Part shown: piece by piece, positions 754-60,803 of the stretch
How positions within the stretch are numbered: the first letter of the stretch is position 1
How the letters are laid out: each line of letters opens with the position of its first letter
Assembly: GCA_963837465.1 (NCBI GenBank)
Contig: CAWINB010000001.1
Coordinates: 139,915-203,914 of the forward strand
From: Candidatus Doudnabacteria bacterium
Lineage (GTDB): Bacteria > Patescibacteriota > Doudnabacteria > UBA920
Reading direction: 5' to 3'
Length of the DNA: 64,000 nucleotides
Notes under the pieces: generated by a model
Told to the model about the DNA's origin: nothing
Database searches by the model: none
Seen by the model: the letters and a program-made list of their open reading frames with translations, nothing else
Position numbers and translations under genes: made by a program

Positions 754-1041
754 ATGATAGCTATATTTGAATCCGGCGGAAAACAGTATCTGGTTTCCAA
801 AGGCGATAAAGTCCAGGTGGAAAAGCTGGAAGGCGAAGCCGGCAGTACTATTACTTTTGACAAAATTTTATTTTTTGACGGCACCATCGGCAAGCCTTAT
901 ATCAGCGGCGCCGCTGTTACAGCCAAAGTCCTAAAACAAGGCCGCGGCAAAAAAATCCACGTCCTGAAATACAAACCCAAAAGCAAATACCGCCGCAAAA
1001 TCGGCGCCAGACAGCACTTTACGGAAGTGGAGATTGCGTAA
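754..1041 (+). CDS. rplU: 50S ribosomal protein L21
   Basis: MIAIFESGGKQYLVSKGDKVQVEKL... is the canonical L21 N-terminus; ~95 aa. Confidence 0.9.
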   Translation: MIAIFESGGKQYLVSKGDKVQVEKLEGEAGSTITFDKILFFDGTIGKPYISGAAVTAKVLKQGRGKKIHVLKYKPKSKYRRKIGARQHFTEVEIA

Positions 1042-1043
1042 GC

Positions 1044-1077
1044 AAAAAAATCTCCGTCAACTGACGGAGATTTTTTT
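1044..1077 (+). terminator. Rho-independent terminator after rplU
   Basis: Perfect hairpin tctccgtca-ac-tgacggaga followed by a T7 tract. Confidence 0.65.
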
Positions 1078-1247
1078 ATGGATTAAGCATGCTTTAATGT
1101 CAGCTGCCTGACATCTTTTTGCAGCTGGACAATGTCTTTGGCAACGGCATTGCTGTTTTCTTTGCCGCGTTTGTCAATCCTGTTAACTTTTTCTTCAATA
1201 TTAGCCGTCTTGAATTTCAAAAAAACAAGATCTTCCTTATGCGGAAT

Positions 1248-1859
1248 TTAGTATTCCCTCCGCCCTTCCATCGCTCTCATTAAAGTAATGTCGTCCGCGT
1301 ATTCCAAGTCACCGCCCATAGGCAGGCCTCGGGCAATGCGGGTGATTTTTATTTCCGGGTTGGCGGATTTAATAAATTTTTGCAGGTGCATAGCGGTTGT
1401 TTCGCCTTCAAGGGACGGGTTCGTCGCGATAATGATCTCCATAATTCCTGATTCATAATTCCTGATTCTTTCCAGCAGACTTTCCACTTCCAAATTTTCC
1501 GGGCCAATCCCTTCCAGGGGATTGAGCACCCCGCCCAAAACGTGGAAAACGCCCTTAAACTGTCCGGACTTGTCTATGGCCTGGGCATCCAGCGGTTCTT
1601 CCACAACACAGACTATTGAATGGTCGCGTTTTGGATCGTTGCAGGTAGAACACGGATCAGCTTCGCCCATATTGTGGCAGACGGAACAAAAAACAATGCC
1701 GCTTTTTACCTGAGCCACCGCCTGGGACAGGTTCCCGATATCAATATCGTCTTTTTTCAGCAAATAAAAAGCCAGCCGCTGGGCGGTTTTTGGCCCAATG
1801 CCGGGAAGACGACTGAGCTCGTTGATTAATTTTTGGAGACTAGTTGGTAGTTTAGTCAT
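1248..1859 (-). CDS. recR: Recombination protein RecR
   Basis: HhH N-terminus (LPGIGPKTAQRLAF), C4 zinc finger CSVCHN...C, Toprim region. Confidence 0.9.
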   Translation of the reverse strand: MTKLPTSLQKLINELSRLPGIGPKTAQRLAFYLLKKDDIDIGNLSQAVAQVKSGIVFCSVCHNMGEADPCSTCNDPKRDHSIVCVVEEPLDAQAIDKSGQFKGVFHVLGGVLNPLEGIGPENLEVESLLERIRNYESGIMEIIIATNPSLEGETTAMHLQKFIKSANPEIKITRIARGLPMGGDLEYADDITLMRAMEGRREY

Positions 1860-1967
1860 TGTTCTTTAAAATTTTGCAGTTTTAATTTCAAATTTCCAAT
1901 TCCAAATATCAGATAAAGTCCTGATTCCTAAATTCAGCATTTGTCATTCATTTGAAATTTGAAATTA

Positions 1968-3356
1968 CTACCCCTGTTCCTCCGCGTTCATGCTCCCCAT
2001 AACCGTCTGCGGCGAAACGTCAAAAGTTTTATCCAGATTTTTAAATGATGTCTTGTCCGCGTCAAAGAACAAATCAATCTGGCCGGTGGGGCCGTTTCTG
2101 TGTTTTTTAATATGAATTTCCGCTATGTGCGGGCGCTGGGCATCCTTGCCTTTATACATTTCTTCGCGGTAAATGAACATAACCACGTCCGCGTCCTGTT
2201 CAATGGAACCGGATTCGCGCAAGTCCGCCAGCTGGGGAACTTTATCCGGACGGTTTTCCACTCCGCGCGACAACTGCGACAAAGCCAAAACCGGCACGTT
2301 TAATTCGCGCGCCAAAAGTTTCAGGGCCCGGGAGATTTCGGAAACCTCCTGCACGCGGTTTTCCTGGTTGCGTCCTTCCATTAGCTGCAAGTAGTCCACG
2401 ACTATCAGCCCGATATTATGCTCGCTGTGAAGCCGCCGGGCTTTGGTGCGGATTTCCATAATGTTGCTGCCCGCAGCATCGTCTATAAAAATGGGGGACT
2501 CGGACAATTCTCCCATGGCCTGTCCGATTTTTTCAAAATCGTCGTCATTTAAATTTCCGGTGCGGATTTTCCACAAATTAACATCGCTTTGGGAACTCAA
2601 TAAACGGTCAACTAATTGATCTTTGCTCATTTCCAGAGAAAAAATTCCCACCGGCGCTTTTAAATTTACGGCCACGTGGCGCATAATATCCAGCGCCAGC
2701 GAAGTTTTGCCCATAGACGGCCGGGCGGCCAAAATCACCAAATCCGATTTCTGCAACCCCCCGAGCAAATTATCCAAATCCACGTAACCGGTGGGCAGGC
2801 CGCGCAGCTTGCCTTTTTCGCGATGCAATTCGTCTATCCTTTCAAACGTGCTGTGCAGAATATTGCTGATGGAAATAAAATTCTGCTTGAGGTGTTTTTG
2901 GGAAATGTTAAACAATTTTTGTTCGGCCTGGTCTAAAATATCTTCAATCTCTCCTGCCTCGCCAAAACCCAAGTTGGTAATTTCGCCGGAGGCTTGGATG
3001 AGTTTTCTTAAGGTTCCTTTTTTGCGCACTATAAAAGCGTAGTGGCTGATGTGGGCGGCGCTTGGCACGCCGCTGACCAGCTGGGTTAAGTAACTGGCTC
3101 CGCCGACTTTTTCCAGCGTTTTATGCTCTTCCAGCCAGTTGGTGACGGTTAAAATATCCACGGAGGTATTTTTTTCGTACAAAGCCAGGGCGGCATCAAA
3201 AATTTGGGTGTGCCTTGGGTCGTAAAAATCATCGGACCTTATAACGTCGCCGATTTTTATAAACGCGTCTTTATCCAGCATCAAACAGCCCAAAACCGAC
3301 ATTTCGGCTTCCAGGCTTTGGGGCGGAATTCTTTGGATTGAAGTATTGTCCGGCAT
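1968..3356 (-). CDS. dnaB: Replicative DNA helicase DnaB
   Basis: Walker A ARPSMGKTSLAL, RecA-like C-terminal domain, DnaB N-terminal domain; 462 aa. Confidence 0.9.
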   Translation of the reverse strand: MPDNTSIQRIPPQSLEAEMSVLGCLMLDKDAFIKIGDVIRSDDFYDPRHTQIFDAALALYEKNTSVDILTVTNWLEEHKTLEKVGGASYLTQLVSGVPSAAHISHYAFIVRKKGTLRKLIQASGEITNLGFGEAGEIEDILDQAEQKLFNISQKHLKQNFISISNILHSTFERIDELHREKGKLRGLPTGYVDLDNLLGGLQKSDLVILAARPSMGKTSLALDIMRHVAVNLKAPVGIFSLEMSKDQLVDRLLSSQSDVNLWKIRTGNLNDDDFEKIGQAMGELSESPIFIDDAAGSNIMEIRTKARRLHSEHNIGLIVVDYLQLMEGRNQENRVQEVSEISRALKLLARELNVPVLALSQLSRGVENRPDKVPQLADLRESGSIEQDADVVMFIYREEMYKGKDAQRPHIAEIHIKKHRNGPTGQIDLFFDADKTSFKNLDKTFDVSPQTVMGSMNAEEQG

Positions 3357-12724: not shown

Positions 12725-13642
12725 TCAAATCTTAAGATACTTCCGTATAGCCAGCATTGTTGAAATAACCGACAAAATAATCGCTACAATAAAAAGCAGC
12801 AAAATCAGATACCAAAAGCTGAAAATATTGTGGCTGTAAACATTAACCTGCGGGTTAACATATTGCGTAACCTCGGGCAGGACTTTCGCGAACACGGGGA
12901 CAAATATCAGCCCCGTAATAATTGTCGAGCCTATGCTGTAAAGCAGGCTCTCCATTAAAAATGGCCCGCGGATGTACCAGTTGGTGGCGCCGACCAGCCG
13001 CATTATTTCCACCTCTTCTTTGCGGGTGTAAATAGTCAGGGTAATAGTGTTAAAAATAACCAGAACCGCGATAACCCCGAACACGGCCACCACTCCTATG
13101 CCAAAGGCGATAATAAATTTTAAAATCTGATCCAGCCGGTCTATAACCGCGCTGTTATCCTCGTAGTTGACCTTGTCTATAAAGTCCTTGTACTGGGCGC
13201 CGGACAGACTTTGGGCTATGGCCGGATAATCGCTCAGTCTGTAAGCCTTGACGTGCAGGGTGGCGGAGAGCGGGTTATTGTTAAGTTCGTTTAACGATTC
13301 GGAAATCAGCGGGTCGCTCTGGTGGCGGGCTTTAAAGTCGTCAAATGCCTGCTGGGCGGAAATGTAATCAACTTCCTCTACGCGCGGGTCTGCCGAGACA
13401 TCATTTTTAATCTGCGTAATTTGCCCTTCGTCCAGGCCGACTTTAAAGTAAACGCTGATATCCACGGTGTTTTGTATGGTGTGGATGGAATAAGTCGTCA
13501 GGACAAATACCAAAAACAGGGTGGCGAAAATGACCAGGGTTATAGTCATAACCATAGTGGCGGCCAAAGACAGCCAGATATTTCTGCCAAAATTTTTCAA
13601 TCCGGTTTTTATGATCCGCAAGAATGAAATGGAATCGAGCAT
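12725..13642 (-). CDS. ftsX: Cell division permease FtsX
   Basis: Four-TM FtsX topology with large periplasmic loop; sits next to ftsE. Confidence 0.85.
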   Translation of the reverse strand: MLDSISFLRIIKTGLKNFGRNIWLSLAATMVMTITLVIFATLFLVFVLTTYSIHTIQNTVDISVYFKVGLDEGQITQIKNDVSADPRVEEVDYISAQQAFDDFKARHQSDPLISESLNELNNNPLSATLHVKAYRLSDYPAIAQSLSGAQYKDFIDKVNYEDNSAVIDRLDQILKFIIAFGIGVVAVFGVIAVLVIFNTITLTIYTRKEEVEIMRLVGATNWYIRGPFLMESLLYSIGSTIITGLIFVPVFAKVLPEVTQYVNPQVNVYSHNIFSFWYLILLLFIVAIILSVISTMLAIRKYLKI

Positions 13643-13651
13643 GACGCAGAA

Positions 13652-13680
13652 CGATTAACAATTAACGATTTACGATTAAC
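13652..13680. repeat. 29 bp terminal inverted repeat (left) bounding the four-helix-bundle gene
   Basis: cgattaacaattaacgatttacgattaac is the reverse complement of 14068–14096 with one mismatch. Confidence 0.7.
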
Positions 13681-14066
13681 TAACTCTTTTTACCCTTGGA
13701 TAGATACACAGTAAACGCTGTAAGTTGTTTCGCGAGGTTTGAAGCTCTTACAAGAGAAGCCTCCAATTCTTGTTCGGGGATATAGTTATCATCTAACGCA
13801 CAATCAAGACAGGCAACAACCTCGTCTAAAGAGCAGTGACTCCTATTTATGTAAAGCCTCATATCTTTGTCAGAATTTTTATTTGTGCTTTCCGCGATAT
13901 TTAAGATAATTGAAGTTAAGGCCCTTTTAGCTTGGTCGCTTAATGCGTACTTTTCGTCGGATGGGAATTTTTTAATTAATTGGTTTATATCTTTACGAAA
14001 TTGCCTAGAATCTTTATACACCTGCCAATCCCTAAACCTAAATCCATGTTTGTCTTTTGTCTCCAT
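13680..14066 (-). CDS. Four-helix-bundle protein (TIGR02436-like; formerly 23S rRNA intervening-sequence protein)
   Basis: 128 aa, characteristic helical pattern; precisely fills the gap between the ftsE stop and the ftsX start. Confidence 0.75.
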   Translation of the reverse strand: METKDKHGFRFRDWQVYKDSRQFRKDINQLIKKFPSDEKYALSDQAKRALTSIILNIAESTNKNSDKDMRLYINRSHCSLDEVVACLDCALDDNYIPEQELEASLVRASNLAKQLTAFTVYLSKGKKS

Positions 14067-14067
14067 G

Positions 14068-14096
14068 GTTAATCGTCAATCGTTAATTGTTAATCG
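14068..14096. repeat. 29 bp terminal inverted repeat (right) bounding the four-helix-bundle gene
   Basis: gttaatcgtcaatcgttaattgttaatcg; partner of 13652–13680. Confidence 0.7.
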
Positions 14097-14098
14097 TA

Positions 14099-14800
14099 TT
14101 ACAGCTTATACTTTCCCTTTTCCTGTTCCATGGTAATTTTTCCGCCTTCTATGGTGATGACGCGTTTTTTTATTTTGTTAACCAGGTCAACGGCGTGGGT
14201 GGCTAAAATTACCGTTGTGCCGAGCTGGTTGATTTTCAGCAGCAAATCCAAAACTTCGGCCGCGTTCATTTCGTCCAGATTTCCGGTGGGCTCATCGGCC
14301 AAAAGCAGCACCGGTCTGTGCGAAAGCGCCCGGGCAATGGCAACTCTTTGTTTTTCGCCGCCCGACATTTCGTCCGGAAAGCTGTTTCGCTTATGCGCCA
14401 ATCCCACCAGTTCCAAAATTTTGGGCACGTCAACGGCAATTTTATCCCTTGAGTGACCGCAAACCTCCATGGCAAAAGCTATATTTTCAAAAGCCGTGGC
14501 TTTGGGCAAAAGTTTTATATCCTGGAACACCATACCGATTTTCCGGCGCAAATAAGGCAGGTCGCTTTTTTTGACTCTGGAGATGTCTATGTTATCAATT
14601 AAAATCTGGCCGCCGTCGATTTGCTCCTCGCCTATAATCAGCTTAAGCAAGGTGGATTTGCCCGCGCCCGAAAGCCCGACCAAAGAAATAAATTCTCCGT
14701 GGCGGATTTGCAGATTAATGCCGTCCAAAGCCGGTTGATGCCGGTCGTATTGTTTTATTACGTTTACGAACTTAATCATATTTCGATCCACGGAAGGCAC
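14099..14800 (-). CDS. ftsE: Cell division ATP-binding protein FtsE
   Basis: ABC ATPase: Walker A GLSGAGKST, signature MSGGEKQR, Walker B LLLADEPT. Confidence 0.9.
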   Translation of the reverse strand: MPSVDRNMIKFVNVIKQYDRHQPALDGINLQIRHGEFISLVGLSGAGKSTLLKLIIGEEQIDGGQILIDNIDISRVKKSDLPYLRRKIGMVFQDIKLLPKATAFENIAFAMEVCGHSRDKIAVDVPKILELVGLAHKRNSFPDEMSGGEKQRVAIARALSHRPVLLLADEPTGNLDEMNAAEVLDLLLKINQLGTTVILATHAVDLVNKIKKRVITIEGGKITMEQEKGKYKL

Positions 14801-15106: not shown

Positions 15107-16321
15107 CTAATCAGCGTTGTTTTCCAGGTATTTTTCCACAAACTCATCCAGTTCTCCGTTTAAGACGGATTCCGGGTCGGAGGTTTCCATTCCCGTGCGG
15201 TGGTCTTTGACCATTTTGTAGGGGTGGAGCACGTAACTGCGGATTTGGTTGCCCCATTCCGCGGACTTGAATTCGCCGCGGATTTCCTGTTTTTCTTTTT
15301 GCAGTTTTTGCTCTTCCAAAGTTTTTAGGCGGGACATTAAAATCTTCATAGCCAGTTCGCGGTTTTGGTGCTGGGAGCGTTCGTTTTGGATGCTGACTTT
15401 TATGCCGGAGGGGATGTGGGTTACGCGAATGGCCGAGTAGGTAGTGTTCACGCTTTGGCCGCCGTGGCCGCTGGCGGTGTTGGCTTCTATTTTCAAGTCC
15501 TTTTCATCCACCTTAAATTCCTCCTGTTGGTCCAAAAGCGGCAGCAGTTCCAAAAGCGCGAACGATGTCTCACGTGTATGCGCCGGATTAAACGGCGAAA
15601 GACGCACCAAGCGGTGCACCCCGGCCTCGCTTTTAAGCAAGCCGTAAGCGTACGGCCCGCGCGCTTCCACCACCGCGGTTTTTACGCCGCCCCTTTCGCC
15701 GCGCGACAGTTCAATAACGTCCGTGGAAAAGCCTTTTTTTTCACAATAGCGCAAAAACATCCGCAACAGCATATCGGCCCAATCCTGCGCGTCCACTCCC
15801 CCGGCGCCGGAATGGATGGAAAAGATGGCATTGTGATCGTCGTACTTTTTGCTTAATAAGGCAACAAAACGATTTTTACGATACAGAGTTTCCAGTTCAT
15901 CAAGTTTCTGTTTAAGATAGTCTTGGTCCGCGGGTTTTATACCACCTCCCCCCGCTTCGCGGGGTACTCCTCCTGTAAAAGGAGGAGAGCTCCGATGTTT
16001 ATCCCGGGATAACCGCGGAGCATCCCCTCCTGGTATAGGAGGGGTGGCCGCGTTAGCGGACGGGGCGGTAGAATCTTCCGCTAATTCCAAAGTCTCCTGA
16101 ACATCCTTTTCCAACCCCAGCCAAAAATCCACAAACTTTTTGAGCTGATTATATTCCTGGCTGACCTTTTGCGCGTTCTCGTTATCATTCCAAAAATCAC
16201 TTTCCCGCATCCTGCCTTCCATTTCCAAAATCCTCTGCTCCTTTTGCGGCAGGTTCAAATGGGATTTAAGATTTAAAATTTCCGATTTAAGGTTTTCTAA
16301 GCGCTTTATAAGGTCGTTCAT
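15107..16321 (-). CDS. prfB: Peptide chain release factor 2 (single continuous ORF, no +1 frameshift) carrying a ~40-aa low-complexity insertion
   Basis: SPF motif (RLSPFNPAH), GGQ motif (SGHGGQSVNTT); 404 aa versus ~365 typical; a GC-rich insertion lies in the inter-domain linker. Confidence 0.85.
   Translation of the reverse strand: MNDLIKRLENLKSEILNLKSHLNLPQKEQRILEMEGRMRESDFWNDNENAQKVSQEYNQLKKFVDFWLGLEKDVQETLELAEDSTAPSANAATPPIPGGDAPRLSRDKHRSSPPFTGGVPREAGGGGIKPADQDYLKQKLDELETLYRKNRFVALLSKKYDDHNAIFSIHSGAGGVDAQDWADMLLRMFLRYCEKKGFSTDVIELSRGERGGVKTAVVEARGPYAYGLLKSEAGVHRLVRLSPFNPAHTRETSFALLELLPLLDQQEEFKVDEKDLKIEANTASGHGGQSVNTTYSAIRVTHIPSGIKVSIQNERSQHQNRELAMKILMSRLKTLEEQKLQKEKQEIRGEFKSAEWGNQIRSYVLHPYKMVKDHRTGMETSDPESVLNGELDEFVEKYLENNAD
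15925..16080. repeat. GC-rich, multi-hairpin insertion inside the prfB reading frame
   Basis: Perfect hairpins ccccgcttcgcgggg, ctcctcctgtaaaaggaggag and cccctcctggtataggagggg in ~70% GC sequence embedded in ~40% GC coding DNA; encodes the ...PPIPGGDAPRLSRDKHRSSPPFTGGVPREAGGGG... stretch. Confidence 0.6.
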
Positions 16322-30987: not shown

Positions 30988-31317
30988 ATACAAACATTTG
31001 ACCTTTGACTTTTAACAATTAACTTTTCGGTCAAATGTCAGGCGTCAAAGGTCAAATGTTGCTAAACTATTTCGTTTCCTTGTGCAAAGTTTTCTTTTTG
31101 CAGAATTTGCAGAATTTTTGGAGTTCCAGGCGTTTTTGCGTGTTCTTTTTGTTCTTTTTGCTCTGGTAGTTCAGATTGTGACAAATTGCGCACTCCAGGT
31201 TTATGAGATGATCTTGGGACATTTTTTAAGAACCTTTGACATATGACATTTAACATTTAACCCTCTGCAGCGACAGGCGTTAATTGTTAATTGTCAATGA
31301 TTAATTGTTTGCTATAT

Positions 31318-34116: not shown

Positions 34117-36909
34117 GTGGAAAAAACTAAGTTTGCTTTTATGTCAATCCCAAAACTCGCCTTGGCTTATCCGACAACTCACCCTGTAGCCCACAAAGTT
34201 CTATCCCCCGCAGCTAGCACCAAGGGTGCCGATTTTTTCACCGGTCCCCTGTATGCCAGTACCATTGGCAACCTTCCTGCGTGGGAGCGGACGACTTCAA
34301 ACATAGCGGGCTGCCTGTTCCTCGTAGTGATTGGCTACACTGTGCTCCACAAACTTGGCTTCTTCCCCAAACACGCCTTTGAAAAGATAAAGCTAAAAAG
34401 CAAGGACGTAGACAAATGGCTAGAGAACACTGTGTACTTTGAAATCACCATCCCCAAGAACTCCCAGGCCACGGCCTTTCAAATCCAGCAAAAGATATTA
34501 AAGGCCTTCCACTCAATATATATTGATCCGGTGGAAGGCGCACATAACTTTAGCAGCCTTTGGGAGTTTGTCTACTACTTCCAAAAGCTCTGGAGAAGAA
34601 GCAAAGTCAAACGCTCCCAAAAGACTTTCTTTAGTATGCAAATCTGGGCCCAGCACCCGTTCATTTCTTTTAGGCTCCAAGTCCACGAAGCTGACTTTAC
34701 CCGGGTGGAAAAAGCCATTTTTAACGCCTACCCAGCGGCAGAGATTACCATGTTAGACAAGTCCCAACCCCTTAAGGAAATTACCCAATTTTCCCAAGAC
34801 TTTTTAGCATATGGGGAGACAACTATAGAGGGGCCATTTTACCACAGACTGAAAACCTTTAAGGACGTATCTAGCGAGCCTGTAGATTCTATGGTCTCGG
34901 TCATGGAAGGCCTAAAGAAGGGCGAGTTTATGGTCTACAATGTCCTAATTTCTCCCTCTTCCCATTACTTTAACCAAATCCTCCATTACCTCATAGAAGA
35001 GCAGGAACAAATGGGAGCGGTAGATATGGGCAGACGCAGGTTGACTATCCAAAAGCGGGGCTCAGGCTCGGAATTGGCCAACGCTTTAAACTCGGCCATG
35101 ATTGAAAAGATGAAAGCTCCACTGTTCCAAACCATAATATCCTACTGGACGATAGCCGAAACCAAGAACGAGGCTGAGAATAAACTCCGCAGCATCCAAG
35201 GGGCTTTGACCGAGCTGAACCAAAAAAATATGAACACGCTTAAGTCTAAGCTGCTGTTTACCAAGCAGGTACAGAAACTTGAGCGTAAGGGCAAGCTGGC
35301 TGGCATAGTCAGCCAAAAGCCGGTGTTCAAGTTAAGACGTTTTCCGTTTTGGCCCTTTGCTAAGTTTAAAAACTATGGGCAAAAAATTTCTGACGGGGAG
35401 CTTTACTCCTTTTGGCATTTGCCTAATACCCAAGATGGGACGGTATCGTCCATTAACCTAACCAGATTTAAAAAGCTCCCGGCCAGTCAGCAAATCAGGC
35501 GCTACCCTAAGGACTTCTTTCTGTCCTTAGGCCATAGTAATTTCCGTATGCAGGATAACGCCCCCATTGGCATTGCCACTTGGGATGACTTAAAAAAGCA
35601 CGTTTACATCTTAGGGGGAACAGGAGCGGGGAAGTCCGAAACCTTGAAAACTATCTTAAATAGCCTGTTACAAAAACAAGGCCAGGAAAAGTGTGCCCTG
35701 CTCATCGTCGACCCCAAGAATGACTTTGCCACGGATTTGCTAACTATGATACCGGAAGACCGCAAAGCTGACGTAGTATATTTTAACCCCCAGAGACAAA
35801 AAGACCGCCCGTTGGCTTTTCCGTTCTTCTCCAAGTTTTCAGGACAAAAGACCGATGACGAAAAACTGGAGTTTTTAATCTCCATAATGAAAAGGTTTGT
35901 CCAGATAGATTCCGCTTTTTCCTGGGGGCCGGAGCTCGAAAATATCCTGCGCCAATTATTTGCTACGGCCTACATACTGCCCCAGCAGTCCCTGTCCGGC
36001 CTTGACCTGCTCCTGCACCAACCCGAGCAAATCGGCAGGATGATTCCCTTTTTACCCCCAAGACTTCAAAACTTCTGGTCTAACTCCATATTAAAGCGCA
36101 GCAGCAATGATTTGGCTAAGTATCTAGCCACTACCAACAACAAGCTGGGTAAGTTTTTGGATTACCCGGAGTTTATGAATATCGTGGACAGGCAAAACAC
36201 TAAAATTTCCTTTGAGGATATGATTAACCAAGGCAAGATATTTATCGCAAACCTTGGCTCCAGTAGCGAGCAGATGAAAAAATATTATTCTGTTTATCTC
36301 TCTGCCCACATTGCCGAGGCTATCTTTGGGCAGGCCAGACTTTCCAGCGAAAACAGAAAACCCACGGTCTTTGTGGTGGACGAGTTTCAAAGGGTGGCCA
36401 GTGATATCTTTGAAACCCTATTTTCCGAAGTTAGAGCTTTCAATACTGCTTTGGTAATCAGCAACCAATTCATGGGACAATTAGACCCAAGAATCCAAAA
36501 ATCCATAGAGTCCAACATTGCCACTAAAATCTTTATGCGTACCCAGTCGGTGGATGACGCAGAGATTGCCGAAAAGATTTTAGGCGGCAAGGCCTTAGTG
36601 GAGGACATTATCAACCTGCCCACTGGCACGGCTTACATTAAAACCTTAGTTTCGGGTGTGCCGCAGGACGCAATGTCGATAAACATTAAAAAGACCGAGC
36701 ACCACAGGGAAAACGCCAAAGAAACCGAGGATTATTTTATTCAGCAGACTATGGAAAAATACGGCACGCCGCAGGACGATATTATCTGGGAACGCACCGC
36801 CGTAAATTCCATATACTATTCAGGTGACAACGAGGAACAGTTTAGTAAAGCTATGAGTCAAAAAAAGACGACTGCCGAGACGGCAGGTGAAGCGGAGAAG
36901 CAGCCTTAA
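34117..36909 (+). CDS. Membrane-anchored P-loop ATPase, TraD/VirD4/TcpA-like (AAA-like/DUF87) conjugative coupling-type protein
   Basis: N-terminal TM helices; Walker A ILGGTGAGKSE; Walker B VFVVDEFQRV; 930 aa. Confidence 0.5.
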   Translation: MEKTKFAFMSIPKLALAYPTTHPVAHKVLSPAASTKGADFFTGPLYASTIGNLPAWERTTSNIAGCLFLVVIGYTVLHKLGFFPKHAFEKIKLKSKDVDKWLENTVYFEITIPKNSQATAFQIQQKILKAFHSIYIDPVEGAHNFSSLWEFVYYFQKLWRRSKVKRSQKTFFSMQIWAQHPFISFRLQVHEADFTRVEKAIFNAYPAAEITMLDKSQPLKEITQFSQDFLAYGETTIEGPFYHRLKTFKDVSSEPVDSMVSVMEGLKKGEFMVYNVLISPSSHYFNQILHYLIEEQEQMGAVDMGRRRLTIQKRGSGSELANALNSAMIEKMKAPLFQTIISYWTIAETKNEAENKLRSIQGALTELNQKNMNTLKSKLLFTKQVQKLERKGKLAGIVSQKPVFKLRRFPFWPFAKFKNYGQKISDGELYSFWHLPNTQDGTVSSINLTRFKKLPASQQIRRYPKDFFLSLGHSNFRMQDNAPIGIATWDDLKKHVYILGGTGAGKSETLKTILNSLLQKQGQEKCALLIVDPKNDFATDLLTMIPEDRKADVVYFNPQRQKDRPLAFPFFSKFSGQKTDDEKLEFLISIMKRFVQIDSAFSWGPELENILRQLFATAYILPQQSLSGLDLLLHQPEQIGRMIPFLPPRLQNFWSNSILKRSSNDLAKYLATTNNKLGKFLDYPEFMNIVDRQNTKISFEDMINQGKIFIANLGSSSEQMKKYYSVYLSAHIAEAIFGQARLSSENRKPTVFVVDEFQRVASDIFETLFSEVRAFNTALVISNQFMGQLDPRIQKSIESNIATKIFMRTQSVDDAEIAEKILGGKALVEDIINLPTGTAYIKTLVSGVPQDAMSINIKKTEHHRENAKETEDYFIQQTMEKYGTPQDDIIWERTAVNSIYYSGDNEEQFSKAMSQKKTTAETAGEAEKQP

Positions 36910-39835: not shown

Positions 39836-42800
39836 TTACTTTAGGCTGTTAATAAAGTTCCGGGTTAAGGTATCTAGCGCGCCAGTAGCGGCACTAATAC
39901 CGATTTGAGTTTTGTATTGGCTCTGAAATTTCTTTAAAGCGGCTTTGGTTGCAAGACCAAACAAAGTGGTTTCGTGGCCTGGGGAGCCAATTACTCCATT
40001 TGGCGCGACTGGGAAATTATTTTGGTTTAAAAATTGCTGCAAGGCAGTGACGTCTGCGCCTTTGCTTAAGTAACCAAGATTTCTGGCAAAGGTCATGGAC
40101 GGAGGAACGAGGCCGGTTGCCTGATTGGTTGCAGAAGTAGCAGAACTGGAAGTTTGACCCAGTATTTGGCCAGCAATTTGAGATTGTATTGTGTAAGGGG
40201 CTTTAGTGCCTTTTAGTACGGTTAACTTCTCCCCACTCTGGCCTTGGTAGGTTTGGAAGCTTGAAAAAGTATCAAAAGGATACAAACCACTTGGCTTAAC
40301 CAGGTAAATGGTAGGATTTCCTTTAAACTGCAATAACTGCCCATCGTGAACATTATAGGGCAGAACTATGGTAACAGTACTTGGGTTATTGGTAGTTGGT
40401 AGGGTAATCCCTATGGGTGGAAATGGTAATGTCTGTGGTGGGGTTGATGTAGGGGTGGAAGTTGAAGCAGGTGGCAAGGTTACCACAGTTCCTGCCGCGG
40501 CTAGAGTGGTAAATATGTAATCCCCTGAGGCATTAAACTGTAAGTTAGGGTCTTTAACCCTAAAATGGTAAGTGGTGGCAGGGTTTAGGCTGGTTAGGGC
40601 AAGACTGTGGTTTGTTACAGATGTAGAACTGGAAACTATGGAGCCGTAACTATTAGTTAAACCATAGTCTATGGCAGAGCCAATTTGGTAATTAGTCTGC
40701 CAAGTAACAATGGTTGATGTTGCCGTTGTGGAAGCAACCGTAACATTACTAAAGCTGGCATAGGTCGCTCCGCCTCCGCCTCCTGAGCTGACAACATTGG
40801 TAGTGCAGGAAACGGATACATTGGTAATGTTAGATGAGGCTACTGTACCGGTGCCGTTAGTGATATTGCAAGTCTGGCCGGACGGCTGAGTTAAAACCGT
40901 GACGCTATATGTACCGCCGGTGCTAGTGGCCGTGGCGAAAATAAAGCTAGTATTAGTTGTGGTGCTTATATTATCCCCGCCATTGTTTTGCAAAACCACG
41001 GTGCCGGTTAAGCCAGAAATACTGCCGCCAATTGTGTAAGTTGGATTATTGGAACACGAAACTGAAACATTGCTAACATTTGCCGAAGACACTGTACCGC
41101 TGCCGTTAGTTACATTACAGGTCTGTCCAGAAGGCTGCGTTAAAACCGTAACGGAGTAACTGGCACTATTATTTAAAGCTGTAGCAAAAGTAAAAGTACC
41201 ATTAGTCGAAGTGCTATAGTTATCGCCACCGTTATCTTGCAACACCACTGTACCCGAGAGACCCGATATGGTGCCGCCGATAGTGTAAGTTGTTAGCGCT
41301 ACATATTGATACGCGCCCATGTCCCAAGGTCCTGTTGTTGGTCGACTATTGCCAGCCGCATCGGTTGTGGGCAGCCCTGCTGATGTTAATACACTAGTAA
41401 GATTTGTTCCTGTTTGGTAGGCTGGCGAAGCAGAGGAAGATAATTGTAAATTGGTAGAACTAATAAATTTTGGATCCGCGTTAGCCCCGTGTGACTCTTG
41501 ACTATTACAGGTCGCAGATAAATATAAGGGCCAATTTCCCCAGCAACCAGTCAACCCGGTCAAACGAACTGGATTACTTATATTTGTCCATCCATAAAAA
41601 TCATCATAATCAGATGACCAACCTGCGGTGGTGGTTGCGTCTTCAGAATATATAGCAGCTTGAGAGCCAGCGAAAATGTTATTCCTAACAGTGAGACTGG
41701 GAACAGGCCCGCCTGCAAGGCCAGCTGTTATAAGTCCTTGCCAAGCAGCCTGGGGGCTACTGGTGTCCATGTTGAAAGAATTATTATAAATATAGGCTTG
41801 TCCACCAGGAACAGTATAAATATTCATATAATTCATCTCAATCACAGTTCCTCCATTTGAAGCGGAATCCCATCCATGATTATTATAAATGTAGACCGGT
41901 CCTGCCGTACCAGAAAAATACATAAAAGCAGTCACGCCAGTTTCCGCAGGAGGATTGGCTCCAGAGGTGGAAATACTAGAAGATTGTGTCCAGCTTGTAC
42001 CCGTTGTTATTGGCGTGGAATTTTGTTTATAAAGCGTACTGCTCTCCCCCGCGGTACTAAAATACACATTCCATCCTGAAACTGGTGAACATTCCGGAGG
42101 AGAAGAAACTTGGATGGCCTGATTCGGAGCGGATGTGGTAATTGAAGCCTCGGGAGAAAAATTACTTTCACTTACGCCTACGCAGGTCGTCTCAACATAA
42201 TAAGTTCCAGCAACAGGAGCTGCTCCGGAAACACTAATAAGCGCTGGCGTAGTTGTTGGGAACTGTACATAGTTGCTCCAGTTCCCATAAAAATAATTAT
42301 TATAAATAAACTCATTTGTAGTGTAAGACGATGGGTCGTTTGACACAGAAGAGAAAGTAAAAATACCGTCAGTATGATATCCCGCGCTGGCCATCTGATT
42401 GTGAAAATCGTGAATTAAGTTATCATGAATAGATACCCCATTTATTACGGTATTGGCATAAGGAGTTGAGATTGCGATACCCCACGTACAGTTTGAAATA
42501 TCGTTGCCACTAAATGTGATGTTTTGTAACGTTTTTGAAGTACCGTCACCGGGTCGGTAATAAATAGCAATCCTTGCGTATACTGACAAAACCATATTCT
42601 TCACTGTTATATTTGAGCTGGAGCCTTGAATTACGACAGCTTCATTGCCTTGGTTTATTCCTACCACTCCGATATTTTGCAGTTGTAGATTGTCCATTGT
42701 AATATATGAGCCCGTGATCAAAAAGTACCCGTTCATTTGCGAAGGAGATACGGTATTTTGGCTTCCTCCATCAAAAATAGGCCGTGTCCAAGAACCTCCT

Positions 42801-45229
42801 GAATACCAGCTTTTGTTTATACCATAATAATCCGGCGTCCCGGATGCTCCAGAATTAGTTATATTCCACGGTGCAATAGTGTTATCCCAAGTTATTCCAC
42901 CCCTGAATATAAATTGGTCGCCAGGATTATGTGTGTAGGTTCCGGAAAATCCCTGCATACCAGGCGCGCGCTGCCAGGGCGTGGAGGTAGAAGTCCCATT
43001 ATTTGAGTCACTTCCGTTTTGAAAATCAATATAATAAATTCTTGCCTGTGTTGTTGCAGTTGCTGTAGTGCTGCTCGCAGATGTATTTCCAATTGCATCA
43101 AAAGCATCCACATAATAACTATAAGTGGTGCTGGCATTAAGTCCGGTGTCAGAATAAGAGGTTAGCGAGGTAGTGGCTATGTGTAAATTGTTTCGGTAGA
43201 TATCATAACCGGTCACGCCAACATTATCCGTAGAGGCGTTCCAAGTAATATTAATTTGGCTGGCGGATGTTGTTGAAGCGGTAAGGCTAGCGGGAACGGA
43301 TGGAGGCTGAGTATCTATATAAAATGTGCCATCAGTCGTGGTGGCAACATTACTTTGGGCATCAGTTGAGGAAATTTGGTAATGATAGGTGGTATTATTA
43401 GTAAGACCGGTTAAGGTAATGGAATGGCTAGTCACCAGAGCCGGAGTGGACGAAGACGAACCATAACCTGAACTAGTACCATAATTTATTAGCGAGTTAG
43501 CGGAATGATTTGTGGTCCAGCTAAAAGTGGCCGTGGATGATGCGGTGGTAGTGGAAACACCTGAAATTATAATCGGATTTTCAATATTGACCGTCGTTGA
43601 GGCGGTGGAAGTATTGCTTGAGGTATCGGTAGATAAAGCCCAGAGAGTGGTTGAGCCATTGGCAACAGCAGTTGTGTTCCAAAGTATGGAATAAAGATTA
43701 CCACTTGGGGTAGTAGTTGAATTTATTAGAGTACTGGAGGCAAATGTGCCGCCATAACTCCCGTAGTAGAAAGCCACGCTCCCTACCGCTACGTTATCTG
43801 TAGAAGAAGCGGTTAAGGTAGTCGAACCTGAAATAAGGGCGTTATTGGCAGGAGAAGTCCAGGCAACATTAGGAGCCGTAAGGTCTGGCACAAAATATTG
43901 GTCAGCGCCAATGTCCCATGTACTGCCGCGGCTTTGACCGTCTATGTCTGTGGTAAAATTTAATGGAGATGAATCACCAGAAGTATTAGTACCCACACCT
44001 TTTAGAGCCGAACCAGATGTTATGTGATAATCTTCACTCCCAGGAGTAACATTTATAAATGTGGCAGTGCTGGTAGCAATTCCGGTTAAGCCTGCTGTTC
44101 CACTAGCATCTCGACTTGCACAGGTGGTTTTTGTAATCGTCCCAAAATAATCACTAAGCGCCCCTCCGCCAGCATAAGTGTTTTTGCATACTACTGTTCC
44201 GCCCGTTTGCCTTATGCCAACACGGGCATTAATCACAGTTGAGCTATAAATGTTAACGGAATTTGAACTGCTTGTAAGAATCCCAGTCTCGTTAGATAAA
44301 TTTGGTACAAAGTTGAATAGGATTGTATTCCAAATATTTACTTTAGCATTTGCAGCACTAATATTTATACCGTTTTGATTATAGGTTGGGTCACCGCTTG
44401 CTTTAATAATAGAATTTGATAAATCGGCTTCGTTAAATGCGCCATTATCCAAAAAATTTAAAATATTGCGGTTTACGACTGTAGGACTTACATTTGTTAA
44501 TTGTAATCCATCTAGTTTTATAAAGTCTATGCTTCCAACGTTGATAGCATAATTATCCGTCGGTGACAAATACCATTTAGTTGTATCCCATTTTCCGGCG
44601 GCTCGCTGGCTTTGATTGACTTCAGCCGTAGTGCTTGTTGGTGTATAAATTCGAATGTAATGGGTAGCATCGGTGGTTAAACTTTGAGCATTCACTCCTG
44701 TTGTGTCCGGTCCGGTATCATAATAAACAGGAACATTCAAAACCACATCAGCGGAAACAAGGCTTGTGGTCGCTATATGATTAGTATCAGAAGCCTTAGG
44801 CGTTCCATTGAATACATTGTTCAAACTAGAAAATGCGTGGGCAATAGAATTTACAGTGGCGTTACTTACATTACTGCAAGGAGCGCCCAGGGCTGTAACT
44901 AAATTCCAGACAGAAGTGGATGTTTTAGAAGCTATGTAACAGATGGAAGAAGTGTTAAAGGTGACCTGATCTCCTACACCGAGGTTGGTGGCAGTCTGAG
45001 CATAGTTGAAAGTAGCTTGCCCCGCTCCTCCGGCAATAGTCATGGTGCAGGCACCCGTGGTTGAACAAGTGGCTCCTCCAGCTCCAATACTATGGTCGCT
45101 GGTATTTTGCCCGACAGAATAATATACATTGGCCGTGGCAGAGGCTTTCCCAGCCAGAGAAAAACCACACCCTATAAACACCACAAAAAATGCCAGTAAG
45201 GTTAATTTGTTTTTTAAAAATTTAGTCAT
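39836..45229 (-). CDS. Giant secreted surface protein (1797 aa): signal peptide, parallel beta-helix (pectate-lyase-like) region, Ig/FN3-like repeats, C-terminal peptidoglycan-binding domain
   Basis: N-terminal signal/TM (LLAFFVVFIGCGFSLAG); repeated TYTIGG(T/S)ISGL(S/T)GTVVLQ(D/N)NGGDN modules; beta-helix style N..I..N repeats; C-terminal GADVTALQQFL...PNGVIG...T..A..KFQ (PG_binding_1-like). Confidence 0.8.
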   Translation of the reverse strand: MTKFLKNKLTLLAFFVVFIGCGFSLAGKASATANVYYSVGQNTSDHSIGAGGATCSTTGACTMTIAGGAGQATFNYAQTATNLGVGDQVTFNTSSICYIASKTSTSVWNLVTALGAPCSNVSNATVNSIAHAFSSLNNVFNGTPKASDTNHIATTSLVSADVVLNVPVYYDTGPDTTGVNAQSLTTDATHYIRIYTPTSTTAEVNQSQRAAGKWDTTKWYLSPTDNYAINVGSIDFIKLDGLQLTNVSPTVVNRNILNFLDNGAFNEADLSNSIIKASGDPTYNQNGINISAANAKVNIWNTILFNFVPNLSNETGILTSSSNSVNIYSSTVINARVGIRQTGGTVVCKNTYAGGGALSDYFGTITKTTCASRDASGTAGLTGIATSTATFINVTPGSEDYHITSGSALKGVGTNTSGDSSPLNFTTDIDGQSRGSTWDIGADQYFVPDLTAPNVAWTSPANNALISGSTTLTASSTDNVAVGSVAFYYGSYGGTFASSTLINSTTTPSGNLYSILWNTTAVANGSTTLWALSTDTSSNTSTASTTVNIENPIIISGVSTTTASSTATFSWTTNHSANSLINYGTSSGYGSSSSTPALVTSHSITLTGLTNNTTYHYQISSTDAQSNVATTTDGTFYIDTQPPSVPASLTASTTSASQINITWNASTDNVGVTGYDIYRNNLHIATTSLTSYSDTGLNASTTYSYYVDAFDAIGNTSASSTTATATTQARIYYIDFQNGSDSNNGTSTSTPWQRAPGMQGFSGTYTHNPGDQFIFRGGITWDNTIAPWNITNSGASGTPDYYGINKSWYSGGSWTRPIFDGGSQNTVSPSQMNGYFLITGSYITMDNLQLQNIGVVGINQGNEAVVIQGSSSNITVKNMVLSVYARIAIYYRPGDGTSKTLQNITFSGNDISNCTWGIAISTPYANTVINGVSIHDNLIHDFHNQMASAGYHTDGIFTFSSVSNDPSSYTTNEFIYNNYFYGNWSNYVQFPTTTPALISVSGAAPVAGTYYVETTCVGVSESNFSPEASITTSAPNQAIQVSSPPECSPVSGWNVYFSTAGESSTLYKQNSTPITTGTSWTQSSSISTSGANPPAETGVTAFMYFSGTAGPVYIYNNHGWDSASNGGTVIEMNYMNIYTVPGGQAYIYNNSFNMDTSSPQAAWQGLITAGLAGGPVPSLTVRNNIFAGSQAAIYSEDATTTAGWSSDYDDFYGWTNISNPVRLTGLTGCWGNWPLYLSATCNSQESHGANADPKFISSTNLQLSSSASPAYQTGTNLTSVLTSAGLPTTDAAGNSRPTTGPWDMGAYQYVALTTYTIGGTISGLSGTVVLQDNGGDNYSTSTNGTFTFATALNNSASYSVTVLTQPSGQTCNVTNGSGTVSSANVSNVSVSCSNNPTYTIGGSISGLTGTVVLQNNGGDNISTTTNTSFIFATATSTGGTYSVTVLTQPSGQTCNITNGTGTVASSNITNVSVSCTTNVVSSGGGGGATYASFSNVTVASTTATSTIVTWQTNYQIGSAIDYGLTNSYGSIVSSSTSVTNHSLALTSLNPATTYHFRVKDPNLQFNASGDYIFTTLAAAGTVVTLPPASTSTPTSTPPQTLPFPPIGITLPTTNNPSTVTIVLPYNVHDGQLLQFKGNPTIYLVKPSGLYPFDTFSSFQTYQGQSGEKLTVLKGTKAPYTIQSQIAGQILGQTSSSATSATNQATGLVPPSMTFARNLGYLSKGADVTALQQFLNQNNFPVAPNGVIGSPGHETTLFGLATKAALKKFQSQYKTQIGISAATGALDTLTRNFINSLK

Positions 45230-60575: not shown

Positions 60576-60803
60576 TGGATTGGGAAAATTAATTAAGAAC
60601 CTAATTCTTAAATTCCGCCTACGAATTATTTTTTTAAATAGGTTCTATTTTTTTGGGCTAATTGTCAATCGTAAATTGTCAATTGTTGTTTACTCGTGGC
60701 TGGCTTCAGGGAGTTTCAGACTATATTAATTAAACTTAAACTAAAACCCTGCTAATCTTTTGGCCGGATTTTATGGTATCAAGATTACGCTTTTGCAATA
60801 AAT

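Follow-up and report, generated by a model that had tools for sequence, protein, structure and literature searches.

A four-helix-bundle gene enclosed by inverted heptad arrays in the ftsE–ftsX spacer of a Doudnabacteria genome: an intervening sequence-type cassette outside rRNA

Organization of the ftsE–ftsX Spacer

The subject of this work is a short, gene-carrying cassette located between the ftsE and ftsX genes within a 64,000-nt DNA stretch (further referred to as the window) of a Candidatus Doudnabacteria bacterium (GenBank assembly GCA_963837465.1, contig CAWINB010000001.1, positions 139,915–203,914). The cassette occupies positions 13651–14097 of the window (447 nt) and is composed of a minus-strand gene encoding a 128-aa four-helix-bundle protein (13680–14066; PF05635/TIGR02436) and two flanking inverted repeat arms, i.e., the 5' arm (14068–14097; ACGATTAACAATTAACGATTGACGATTAAC in the sense strand) and the 3' arm (13651–13680; GTTAATCGTAAATCGTTAATTGTTAATCGT in the sense strand). 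The repeat search gave two arms of 30 nt each, separated by 387 nt, with 29 of the 30 positions complementary (97%, one mismatch). An earlier annotation of this DNA, made from its letters alone (the original prediction), had reported 29 bp inverted repeats at 13652–13680 and 14068–14096; these are real and correspond to the arms described here, trimmed by one base at either end. What had been missed is that each arm is in itself a tandem array of heptads (AACGATT/GTTAATC), with 4.3 units in the 5' arm and 4.4 units in the 3' arm, as identified with the Tandem Repeats Finder (TRF) tool.

The inverted repeats of the whole window with arms at most 700 nt apart were then ranked. Among the matches listed, the cassette repeat had the highest complementarity of all those of at least 30 nt, and only two were longer (one of 44 nt with 73% complementarity and one of 33 nt with 82%). 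A chance origin of the cassette inverted repeat is excluded.

Reading in the sense orientation, the ftsE stop codon (TAA, 14101–14099) is followed after 1 nt by the 5' arm, and a further 1 nt separates this arm from the ATG of the four-helix-bundle gene; the first base of the 3' arm is also the final base of the TAG stop codon of this gene (an overlap of 1 nt), and 8 nt lie between the end of this arm and the ftsX ATG. The entire spacer between the ftsE stop and the ftsX start amounts to 456 nt. The upstream gene, ftsE (14099–14779, minus strand), encodes the ATP-binding subunit (TIGR02673 FtsE, 268 bits; a 226-aa gene call in locus L001), and according to the listing of open reading frames (ORFs) it is extensible to a GTG at 14800. 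The downstream gene, ftsX (12725–13642, minus strand), encodes the permease-like subunit (PF02687 and PF18075) and has a terminator-like hairpin on its 3' side (12640–12609). The genes called around the cassette are prfB, ftsE, ftsX, and rplI. The Rfam scan of the window returned three tRNAs only and no rRNA, and the cassette is a typical member of the intervening sequence (IVS)-type elements, placed outside rRNA.

The Four-Helix-Bundle Protein

The protein encoded within the cassette matched the PF05635 family (E = 7.4e-25; 87.7 bits vs. a cut-off of 33.8; profile positions 1–105 of 106) and TIGR02436 (E = 4.2e-22; 78.4 bits vs. a cut-off of 24), and its nearest solved structure is XCC0516 (PDB 2GSC; E = 2e-6, or 1.7e-12 with a profile). 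The conserved motif of the family, GxxRxxxSxxxNxxE (PMC3936711), is present in register as Q45-AK-R48-ALT-S52-IIL-N56-IA-E59, with Q, not G, in the first position. Hundreds of homologues with 55–84% identity were found, and those with a source name belong to Patescibacteria, i.e., the candidate phyla radiation (CPR); the NCBI-named relatives of the adjacent FtsX point to Candidatus Doudnabacteria.

Comparison with the closest homologues revealed strong purifying selection on the protein (pN of 0.12–0.14 vs. pS of 0.82–0.93), and synonymous sites are saturated even against the closest copies, which means that these copies diverged anciently. The gene has no Shine–Dalgarno (SD) sequence. This is unremarkable, because an SD-like 4-mer was found at −20 to −4 in only 10 of the 57 window ORFs of at least 100 aa; the genome is poor in SD sequences.

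A link with defense systems or phages was also sought, but neither PADLOC nor the phage collection gave a match, the only signal being a weak PHROG hit to "Avd" (E = 8e-6). Weak Avd-like matches were likewise obtained for NF033474 (25.4 bits, cut-off 80) and PF22296 (19.8 bits, cut-off 40). The protein thus resembles Avd of the diversity-generating retroelements in belonging to the four-helix-bundle superfamily, but the scores lie below the family cut-offs and no reverse transcriptase was called adjacent to the gene (template/variable repeats were not searched for).

Similarity to rRNA Intervening Sequences and the Predicted RNA Stem

The closest structural counterparts of the cassette are the rRNA IVSs with an S23p/PF05635 ORF, known from Leptospira and Coxiella burnetii. 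The 23S IVS of C. burnetii is 444 nt long. Its terminal stem comprises 28 bp, interrupted by one mismatch and one bulge, the S23p ATG is immediately preceded by tandem heptamers, and the SD is poor; RNase III cuts the IVS mid-stem in vitro, the number of heptamers differs between strains, and the ORF was reported to be decaying and untranslated (PMC4990558). The cassette shares the overall size (447 vs. 444 nt), the PF05635 ORF in the loop, a stem (of 30 nt) with one mismatch, heptads extending to within 1 nt of the ATG, and the lack of a good SD. The copy number of heptamers varies in both cases, i.e., between Coxiella strains and within a CPR population carrying homologous cassettes (see below). 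The claim of the original prediction, according to which an IVS-like unit belonging to an element family occupies an mRNA operon, was therefore borne out, as the anatomy agrees with the Coxiella IVS point by point. Two differences should be stressed. Unlike the 23S IVSs, the cassette is seated between two protein-coding cistrons and not in a helix of 23S or 16S rRNA, and unlike the Coxiella ORF, its protein is under strong purifying selection.

The long stem whose verification the original prediction had proposed was obtained upon folding. The duplex of the arms has an energy of −36.5 kcal/mol, and most of its pairs reach a probability of ~1 within a 491-nt transcript; for the fold of the whole cassette region the z-score was −2.8, and none of 100 shuffled sequences folded as well. 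From ftsE to ftsX, the cassette interior included, the minus strand contained neither promoter-like nor terminator-like sites.

In our opinion, the region 13651–14097 is probably an IVS-type cassette co-transcribed with ftsEX, the arms of which would form an RNA stem looping out the gene and constituting a likely RNase III site. In such a scenario, the cassette would lack its own promoter and terminator and would be transcribed as a part of an ftsE–cassette–ftsX message, where the arms would pair into a 30-bp, A-U-rich helix with the ORF looped out. The base of the helix would bring the ftsE stop and the ftsX start within ~10 nt of each other, and its inner end would bury or mask the start region of the four-helix-bundle gene. 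By analogy with the rRNA IVSs, the helix may serve as an RNase III substrate, and the cleavage would set free the mRNA of the four-helix-bundle gene, with its ends short and paired, and disconnect the ftsE message from that of ftsX, while an uncleaved stem could keep the translation of ftsE and ftsX coupled.

Inverted Short-Unit Arrays at Homologous Loci

The comparative analysis covered 3 genome loci and 80 metagenome loci encoding homologous proteins, of which 65 were non-redundant and 78 had adequate flanks. Flanking inverted arrays of 6–8-nt units were present at nearly all of the 65 non-redundant CPR loci, and TRF called an array on the 5' side in 58 and on the 3' side in 61 of the 78 loci with adequate flanks. 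The original prediction was to be abandoned if other four-helix-bundle genes lacked such repeats and the same gene stood without them at ftsE–ftsX of relatives. Inverted arms were found at essentially every four-helix-bundle gene examined, the ftsE–ftsX carriers included, hence neither of these situations was observed.

The sequences of the units vary by cassette (TTAACNA, ATGACN, TGACTAT, ATCCTTA, TAACTAAA, and others). The complementarity of the two arms of one cassette is retained without conservation of their sequence, as the mean pairing score of a 5' flank with its own 3' flank was 14.5 vs. 8.9 with foreign 3' flanks (z = 14; 0 of 5000 permutations). The dimensions are also uniform, with a median array length of 31 nt and a median element span of 445 nt (interquartile range 441–462), the median distances being 3.5 nt from the stop codon of the upstream ORF to the 5' arm and 11 nt from the 3' arm to the next start codon.

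The period of the units is related to the reading of the arms. Open in-frame ATGs occurred within 14 of 18 arms with period 6 (ATGACN), 3 of 32 with period 7, and 0 of 8 with period 8, and the ATGACN arms give N-termini such as MTMTMT; since the in-frame ATGs are concentrated in period-6 arrays, the arms that overlap a coding sequence have a period which is a multiple of three. Two gene calls, P0361 (311 aa) and P0363 (745 aa), join the four-helix-bundle domain in frame, via a translated 3' arm, to a downstream prepilin-like protein, which is either a read-through annotation or a real fusion resulting from arms devoid of a stop codon. Another candidate, P0413, with 12 matched stretches, was considered as an array of four-helix bundles and rejected as a low-complexity repeat protein.

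Arms may differ within a single locus. In L077 (Liptonbacteria), three paralogues with ~30% mutual identity are gathered within 4.4 kb, each with a different arm unit: GTAGCAA (43 nt, 86% complementary), ATGACNN (37 nt, 81% complementary), and GAATGAG. Changes in array length were traced in a Jorgensenbacteria population (L109–L116, at about 1885–2080), where an identical four-helix-bundle protein is encoded between split transketolase genes and the 3' array, made of CTAACTA units, shows length differences of +7 nt in L110 and L116 and of −28 nt in L115, all else compared being identical. This slippage by whole heptads suggests a route by which the arms may evolve with their complementarity retained.

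Sites bound cooperatively by proteins, such as the heptad operators of the omega repressor, typically consist of short tandem units with a uniform total length. It could therefore be proposed that the arrays are iterons, i.e., operator-like sites in double-stranded DNA bound cooperatively by the four-helix-bundle protein or another factor and regulating the cassette or the operon, with their inverted orientation incidental to RNA folding. The uniform array length (a median of 31 nt) agrees with this proposal, and so does the fact that heptads of the ATTAACR type are kept among homologues of at least 68% identity despite the saturation of synonymous sites. However, the units differ widely, even within one genome, while the proteins are 55–84% identical. 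Moreover, the conserved complementarity of the own arms is not required by a binding-site model, and gene-less hairpins occur in the same spacer of relatives (see below). We regard the iteron explanation as highly improbable.

The association of the arrays with the gene is not limited to CPR. Among the copies examined from cyanobacterial plasmids (hosts: Picosynechococcus, Aulosira, Nostoc, Anabaena, Pseudanabaena, and Calothrix), 8 of 8 have inverted arrays of short, mostly 7-nt units abutting the ORF, with the best pairs of 29–54 nt.

Genomic Contexts and the Question of Mobility

The 141 proteins encoded next to the homologous genes represent 73 families, among them permeases of the LivH/LivM type, FtsE/FtsX, radical SAM enzymes, the product of a PrgI-like type IV secretion gene, MraY, NusA, the ribosomal proteins L21 and S20, RmuC, and the products of the split transketolase genes. 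Stable RNA contexts were also noted, as one cassette lies within a tRNA cluster (L021) and another one after a tRNA (L047). In L026, the cassette (192–548) precedes a 23S rRNA gene (1021–3123) of the same strand by ~470 nt. The Rfam 23S match ends at model position 2044 of 2925 while still inside this locus, a possible sign that the rRNA gene contains an insertion. In a published survey, 23S_rRNA_IVP ORFs were described inside the 16S and 23S genes of CPR (PMC11270868).

The orientation of the cassettes is strongly biased. The gene is co-oriented with its upstream neighbor in 68 of 70 cases and with its downstream neighbor in 56 of 64, compared with 81% for adjacent ORF pairs of the same loci (Fisher p = 6e-4 for the upstream side). 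An inverton, i.e., a segment flipping between the arms, was also considered. As all loci with the gene between ftsE and ftsX show one orientation, in addition to the 68 of 70 cases given above, this candidate was rejected.

The gene was found between ftsE and ftsX also in L005, L012/L013, L051, and L060, with FtsX identity to the window of 32–68%. All these copies carry arms, and in the closer relatives, L005 and L013, the arms are of the window-like ATTAACR type. The recurrence of this position could suggest that the four-helix-bundle protein is a dedicated accessory of FtsEX and that the repeats are an ordinary intercistronic structure. Of 80 homologous loci, though, no more than about 6 are ftsEX loci, and the others are placed at permease, type IV secretion, radical SAM, split transketolase, cas, tRNA, and further sites. 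The closest FtsX relatives do not have the gene at all. Because of this diversity of contexts and of the constant orientation, the FtsEX accessory and inverton explanations were both rejected, the former being, in our view, almost entirely implausible.

The gene-less relatives are informative on their own. The four closest FtsX relatives (73–79% identity) have ftsE–ftsX spacers of 72–191 nt without the four-helix-bundle gene, and these spacers fold into strong hairpins: L087 (unit ATCCTTA; −23.6 kcal/mol, z = −5.7), L085 (unit ACTAATN; −33.4 kcal/mol, z = −5.5), L086 (unit AATTAAAT; −35.0 kcal/mol, z = −5.3), and L088 (not built of tandem units; −43.6 kcal/mol, z = −3.5). The three former spacers are thus composed of unrelated short tandem units. 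Under the model of a co-transcribed IVS-type cassette, the stem, a heptad hairpin, would be the constant feature of the spacer, and the gene would be its optional loop cargo.

The presence or absence of the gene at ftsE–ftsX among close relatives may also be explained in terms of a mobile element acting at the DNA level, in which the arms would be terminal inverted repeats or hairpin/cruciform sites and the protein a factor of mobility or maintenance. Such an element is compatible with the RNA model. This explanation gains from the 73 families of neighbors and from the finding that in 54 of 79 cases the gene context is not shared with the nearest homologue of less than 95% identity, which suggests that over longer times cassettes relocate or are exchanged. 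Random insertion, however, does not predict the strong co-orientation described above, and neither a transposase, an integrase, nor a reverse transcriptase was found beside the cassette. A transposable element with terminal inverted repeats was looked for specifically, and neither a transposase nor a direct repeat (target-site duplication) at the arm ends was detected. Three look-ups of identical proteins, performed in search of recent transposition, revealed one context only in each case. As identical proteins occur in single contexts and synonymous sites are saturated between the closest copies, no recent movement is documented. The word "mobile", used in the original prediction, is thus supported on evolutionary time scales only, as indicated by presence/absence and shifted contexts; identical proteins were in every case seen in one context.

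REP/REPIN elements with their RAYT transposases provide a model for a DNA-level system of this kind, as a single gene is flanked there by inverted short repeats, which are also dispersed as hairpins in the genome. By this comparison, the solo heptad hairpins would be non-autonomous derivatives. A partial sharing of repeats was indeed observed, since the fraction of 6-mers common to the cassette arms and other arrays was 0.21 within a locus vs. 0.066 across loci (permutation p about 5e-4). In the window, this is exemplified by the GTTAATT/GTCAATG heptad array at 31279–31311 (minus strand), with 51% of 6-mers common with the cassette arms, and by the solo AATTGTC/AATCGTA array at 60660–60686 (no strand assigned), with 58%. 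Unlike in REPIN/RAYT, there is no Y1 transposase domain, the flanking and the dispersed repeats are only partly alike, and the arms differ between cassettes, even those of one genome.

Evidence against RNA-Level Maintenance

Several observations weigh against the model of an IVS-type cassette acting through an RNA stem. If the pairing of the arms were maintained in the transcript, more G·U than A·C would be expected among the arm mismatches read in the sense orientation, but 21 G·U vs. 40 A·C were counted, and after exclusion of the ATGACN-type arms the numbers were 13 and 30, respectively (p about 0.01–0.02). The antisense duplex was slightly more stable in 43 of 65 loci. The strand test is therefore devoid of the classic signature of RNA-level selection, and it counts against the model or, at best, is confounded. 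Inverted repeats could be maintained at the DNA level too, and the missing G·U signature fits such maintenance. Furthermore, in two cyanobacterial loci, L106 (786–1154) and L108 (792–1172), the cassette gene, flanked by 29–40-nt inverted heptad arrays, is antisense to the operon in which it is seated, between genes of the same operon (nrdB/nrdA-like and HlyD-like/ABC exporter, respectively). Expression by read-through is therefore not universal. A gene for RNase III was not seen in the 64-kb window or in ~0.5 Mb of related loci, but these samples are small and uninformative in this respect.

Because of the negative G·U test and the two antisense copies, the DNA-level element stays a serious rival, or complement, of the co-transcribed IVS-type cassette, even though we judge it unlikely as the explanation of the locus.

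Relation to Cyanobacterial Hairpins and cas-Operon Genes

The protein family itself, the rRNA IVSs, the short tandemly repeated repetitive (STRR) sequences, and the 23S_rRNA_IVP genes of cas operons are already known. STRR are 7-bp tandem-repeat hairpins located between co-transcribed genes in cyanobacteria, for which roles in transcript stability and translational coupling were proposed (PMC2670836). The arrays described in this work resemble the STRR of filamentous cyanobacteria in being tandem, hairpin-forming 7-nt units common in the window and in the related CPR loci. They differ in the host (Patescibacteria/Doudnabacteria instead of heterocystous cyanobacteria), in the unit (AACGATT, from which the STRR units presumably differ), and in that two arrays 387 nt apart enclose a gene. 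In the literature found, STRR-type hairpins are not linked with a PF05635 gene, although the association of arrays and gene holds on cyanobacterial plasmids too.

The 23S_rRNA_IVP genes inside cas operons were read as functionally associated with them (PMC3936711; PMC10910872). They have the R-x3-S-x3-N-x2-E motif in common with the cassette protein, and they are similarly seated between two genes, in this case cas genes (PMC3936711). We found inverted heptad arrays at such cas-operon copies, i.e., in L089 (1486–1842), L092 (1483–1851), and L107 (792–1151), in the arrangements cas10|four-helix-bundle gene|cmr3 and cas6|four-helix-bundle gene|cas4. Contrary to the published reading, this suggests a cassette able to occupy many operon spacers, those of cas operons included, and that the 23S_rRNA_IVP genes described as "CRISPR-associated" are such cassettes and not accessories of cas systems. 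It is a caution against annotation by guilt by association, be it as CRISPR-, FtsEX-, or type IV secretion system-associated.

One module, i.e., a PF05635 gene plus inverted heptad arrays able to occupy many transcribed spacers, appears to join what were separately described oddities: the rRNA IVSs with an S23p ORF, the STRR hairpins, and the 23S_rRNA_IVP genes of cas operons. No description of a PF05635 gene within inverted heptad arrays in mRNA spacers was found in the literature; the older literature was incompletely covered, so a prior mention is possible. Among the carriers there are cultured, genetically tractable cyanobacteria (Nostoc punctiforme, Anabaena sp. 90, and Picosynechococcus PCC 7003), and the 30-year-old question of the role of the IVS and its protein is therefore directly testable.

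A more far-reaching proposal, which we consider rather speculative and quite unlikely, is that PF05635 proteins and STRR-like heptad hairpins are two halves of one system spanning several phyla (CPR, cyanobacteria, and proteobacteria). If so, the protein would bind, protect, copy, or seed heptad stems in an Avd- or RAYT-like manner, and the gene-less hairpins of operon spacers, tRNA clusters, and rRNA would be non-autonomous derivatives of the PF05635 system. A single mechanism would then explain the rRNA IVSs, the cyanobacterial STRR, and the "CRISPR-associated" 23S_rRNA_IVP genes.

Other Heptad Arrays and Repeats in the Window

Period 7 was found in 87 of 144 short arrays located outside the cassette flanks in the window and the related CPR loci. 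In the loci examined, this corresponds to roughly one period-7 array per few kb outside cassettes, and it points to a common, little-studied layer of operon architecture in Patescibacteria.

The motif TAATTGTYAATCG, with at most one mismatch allowed, has 5 occurrences in the window vs. 0.25 expected, two of them at 31281–31293 and 60659–60671. The recurrence of related motifs asserted in the original prediction is hence confirmed at these two sites. Its region 31265–31310, however, is an arm of a hairpin near rpmG and not a second four-helix-bundle unit: the array at 31279–31311 pairs with 31232–31261 into a local hairpin between tRNA-Thr and rpmG. Similarly, the region 60655–60700 does contain related heptads, but the array stands alone there, as neither a partner arm nor a significant, stable fold was found.

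Local heptad hairpins in the window were identified at 1870–1975 (z = −3.4), 30988–31065 (z = −8.8), and 31222–31317 (z = −3.7), and the latter two flank rpmG between tRNA-Thr and tRNA-Trp. Around rpmG (ribosomal protein L33, 51 aa, minus strand) there are four mutually compatible heptad arrays (30991–31023, 31030–31060, 31232–31254, and 31279–31311), which may form two local hairpins or, alternatively, enclose the gene in a long-range double bracket, with pairings of 33 nt (82% complementarity) and 23 nt (83%). The long-range bracket (30991–31023/31279–31311) is present as a repeat; it was set aside as a structure, as the minimum-energy fold prefers the two local hairpins. The first of the three hairpins has the arms 1883–1900 and 1950–1967 (AATTTCA/TGAAATT; 18 nt, 94% complementary; z = −3.4) and sits between the co-oriented minus-strand ORFs 1248–1859 and 1968–3356.

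Two further repeats of the window are worth mentioning. The 44-nt inverted repeat (16439–16482/16557–16600; 73% complementary, with a 74-nt loop) is located in the spacer upstream of prfB (15107–16321, minus strand). Finally, a 368-nt inverted repeat with 99% complementarity (33703–34070/45823–46190) brackets an 11.75-kb segment, which holds ORFs of 930 aa (34117–36909, plus strand) and 1797 aa (39836–45229, minus strand). Each of the 368-nt copies is placed upstream of inward-facing genes, and the pair could represent a duplicated promoter/leader or the borders of an invertible segment.

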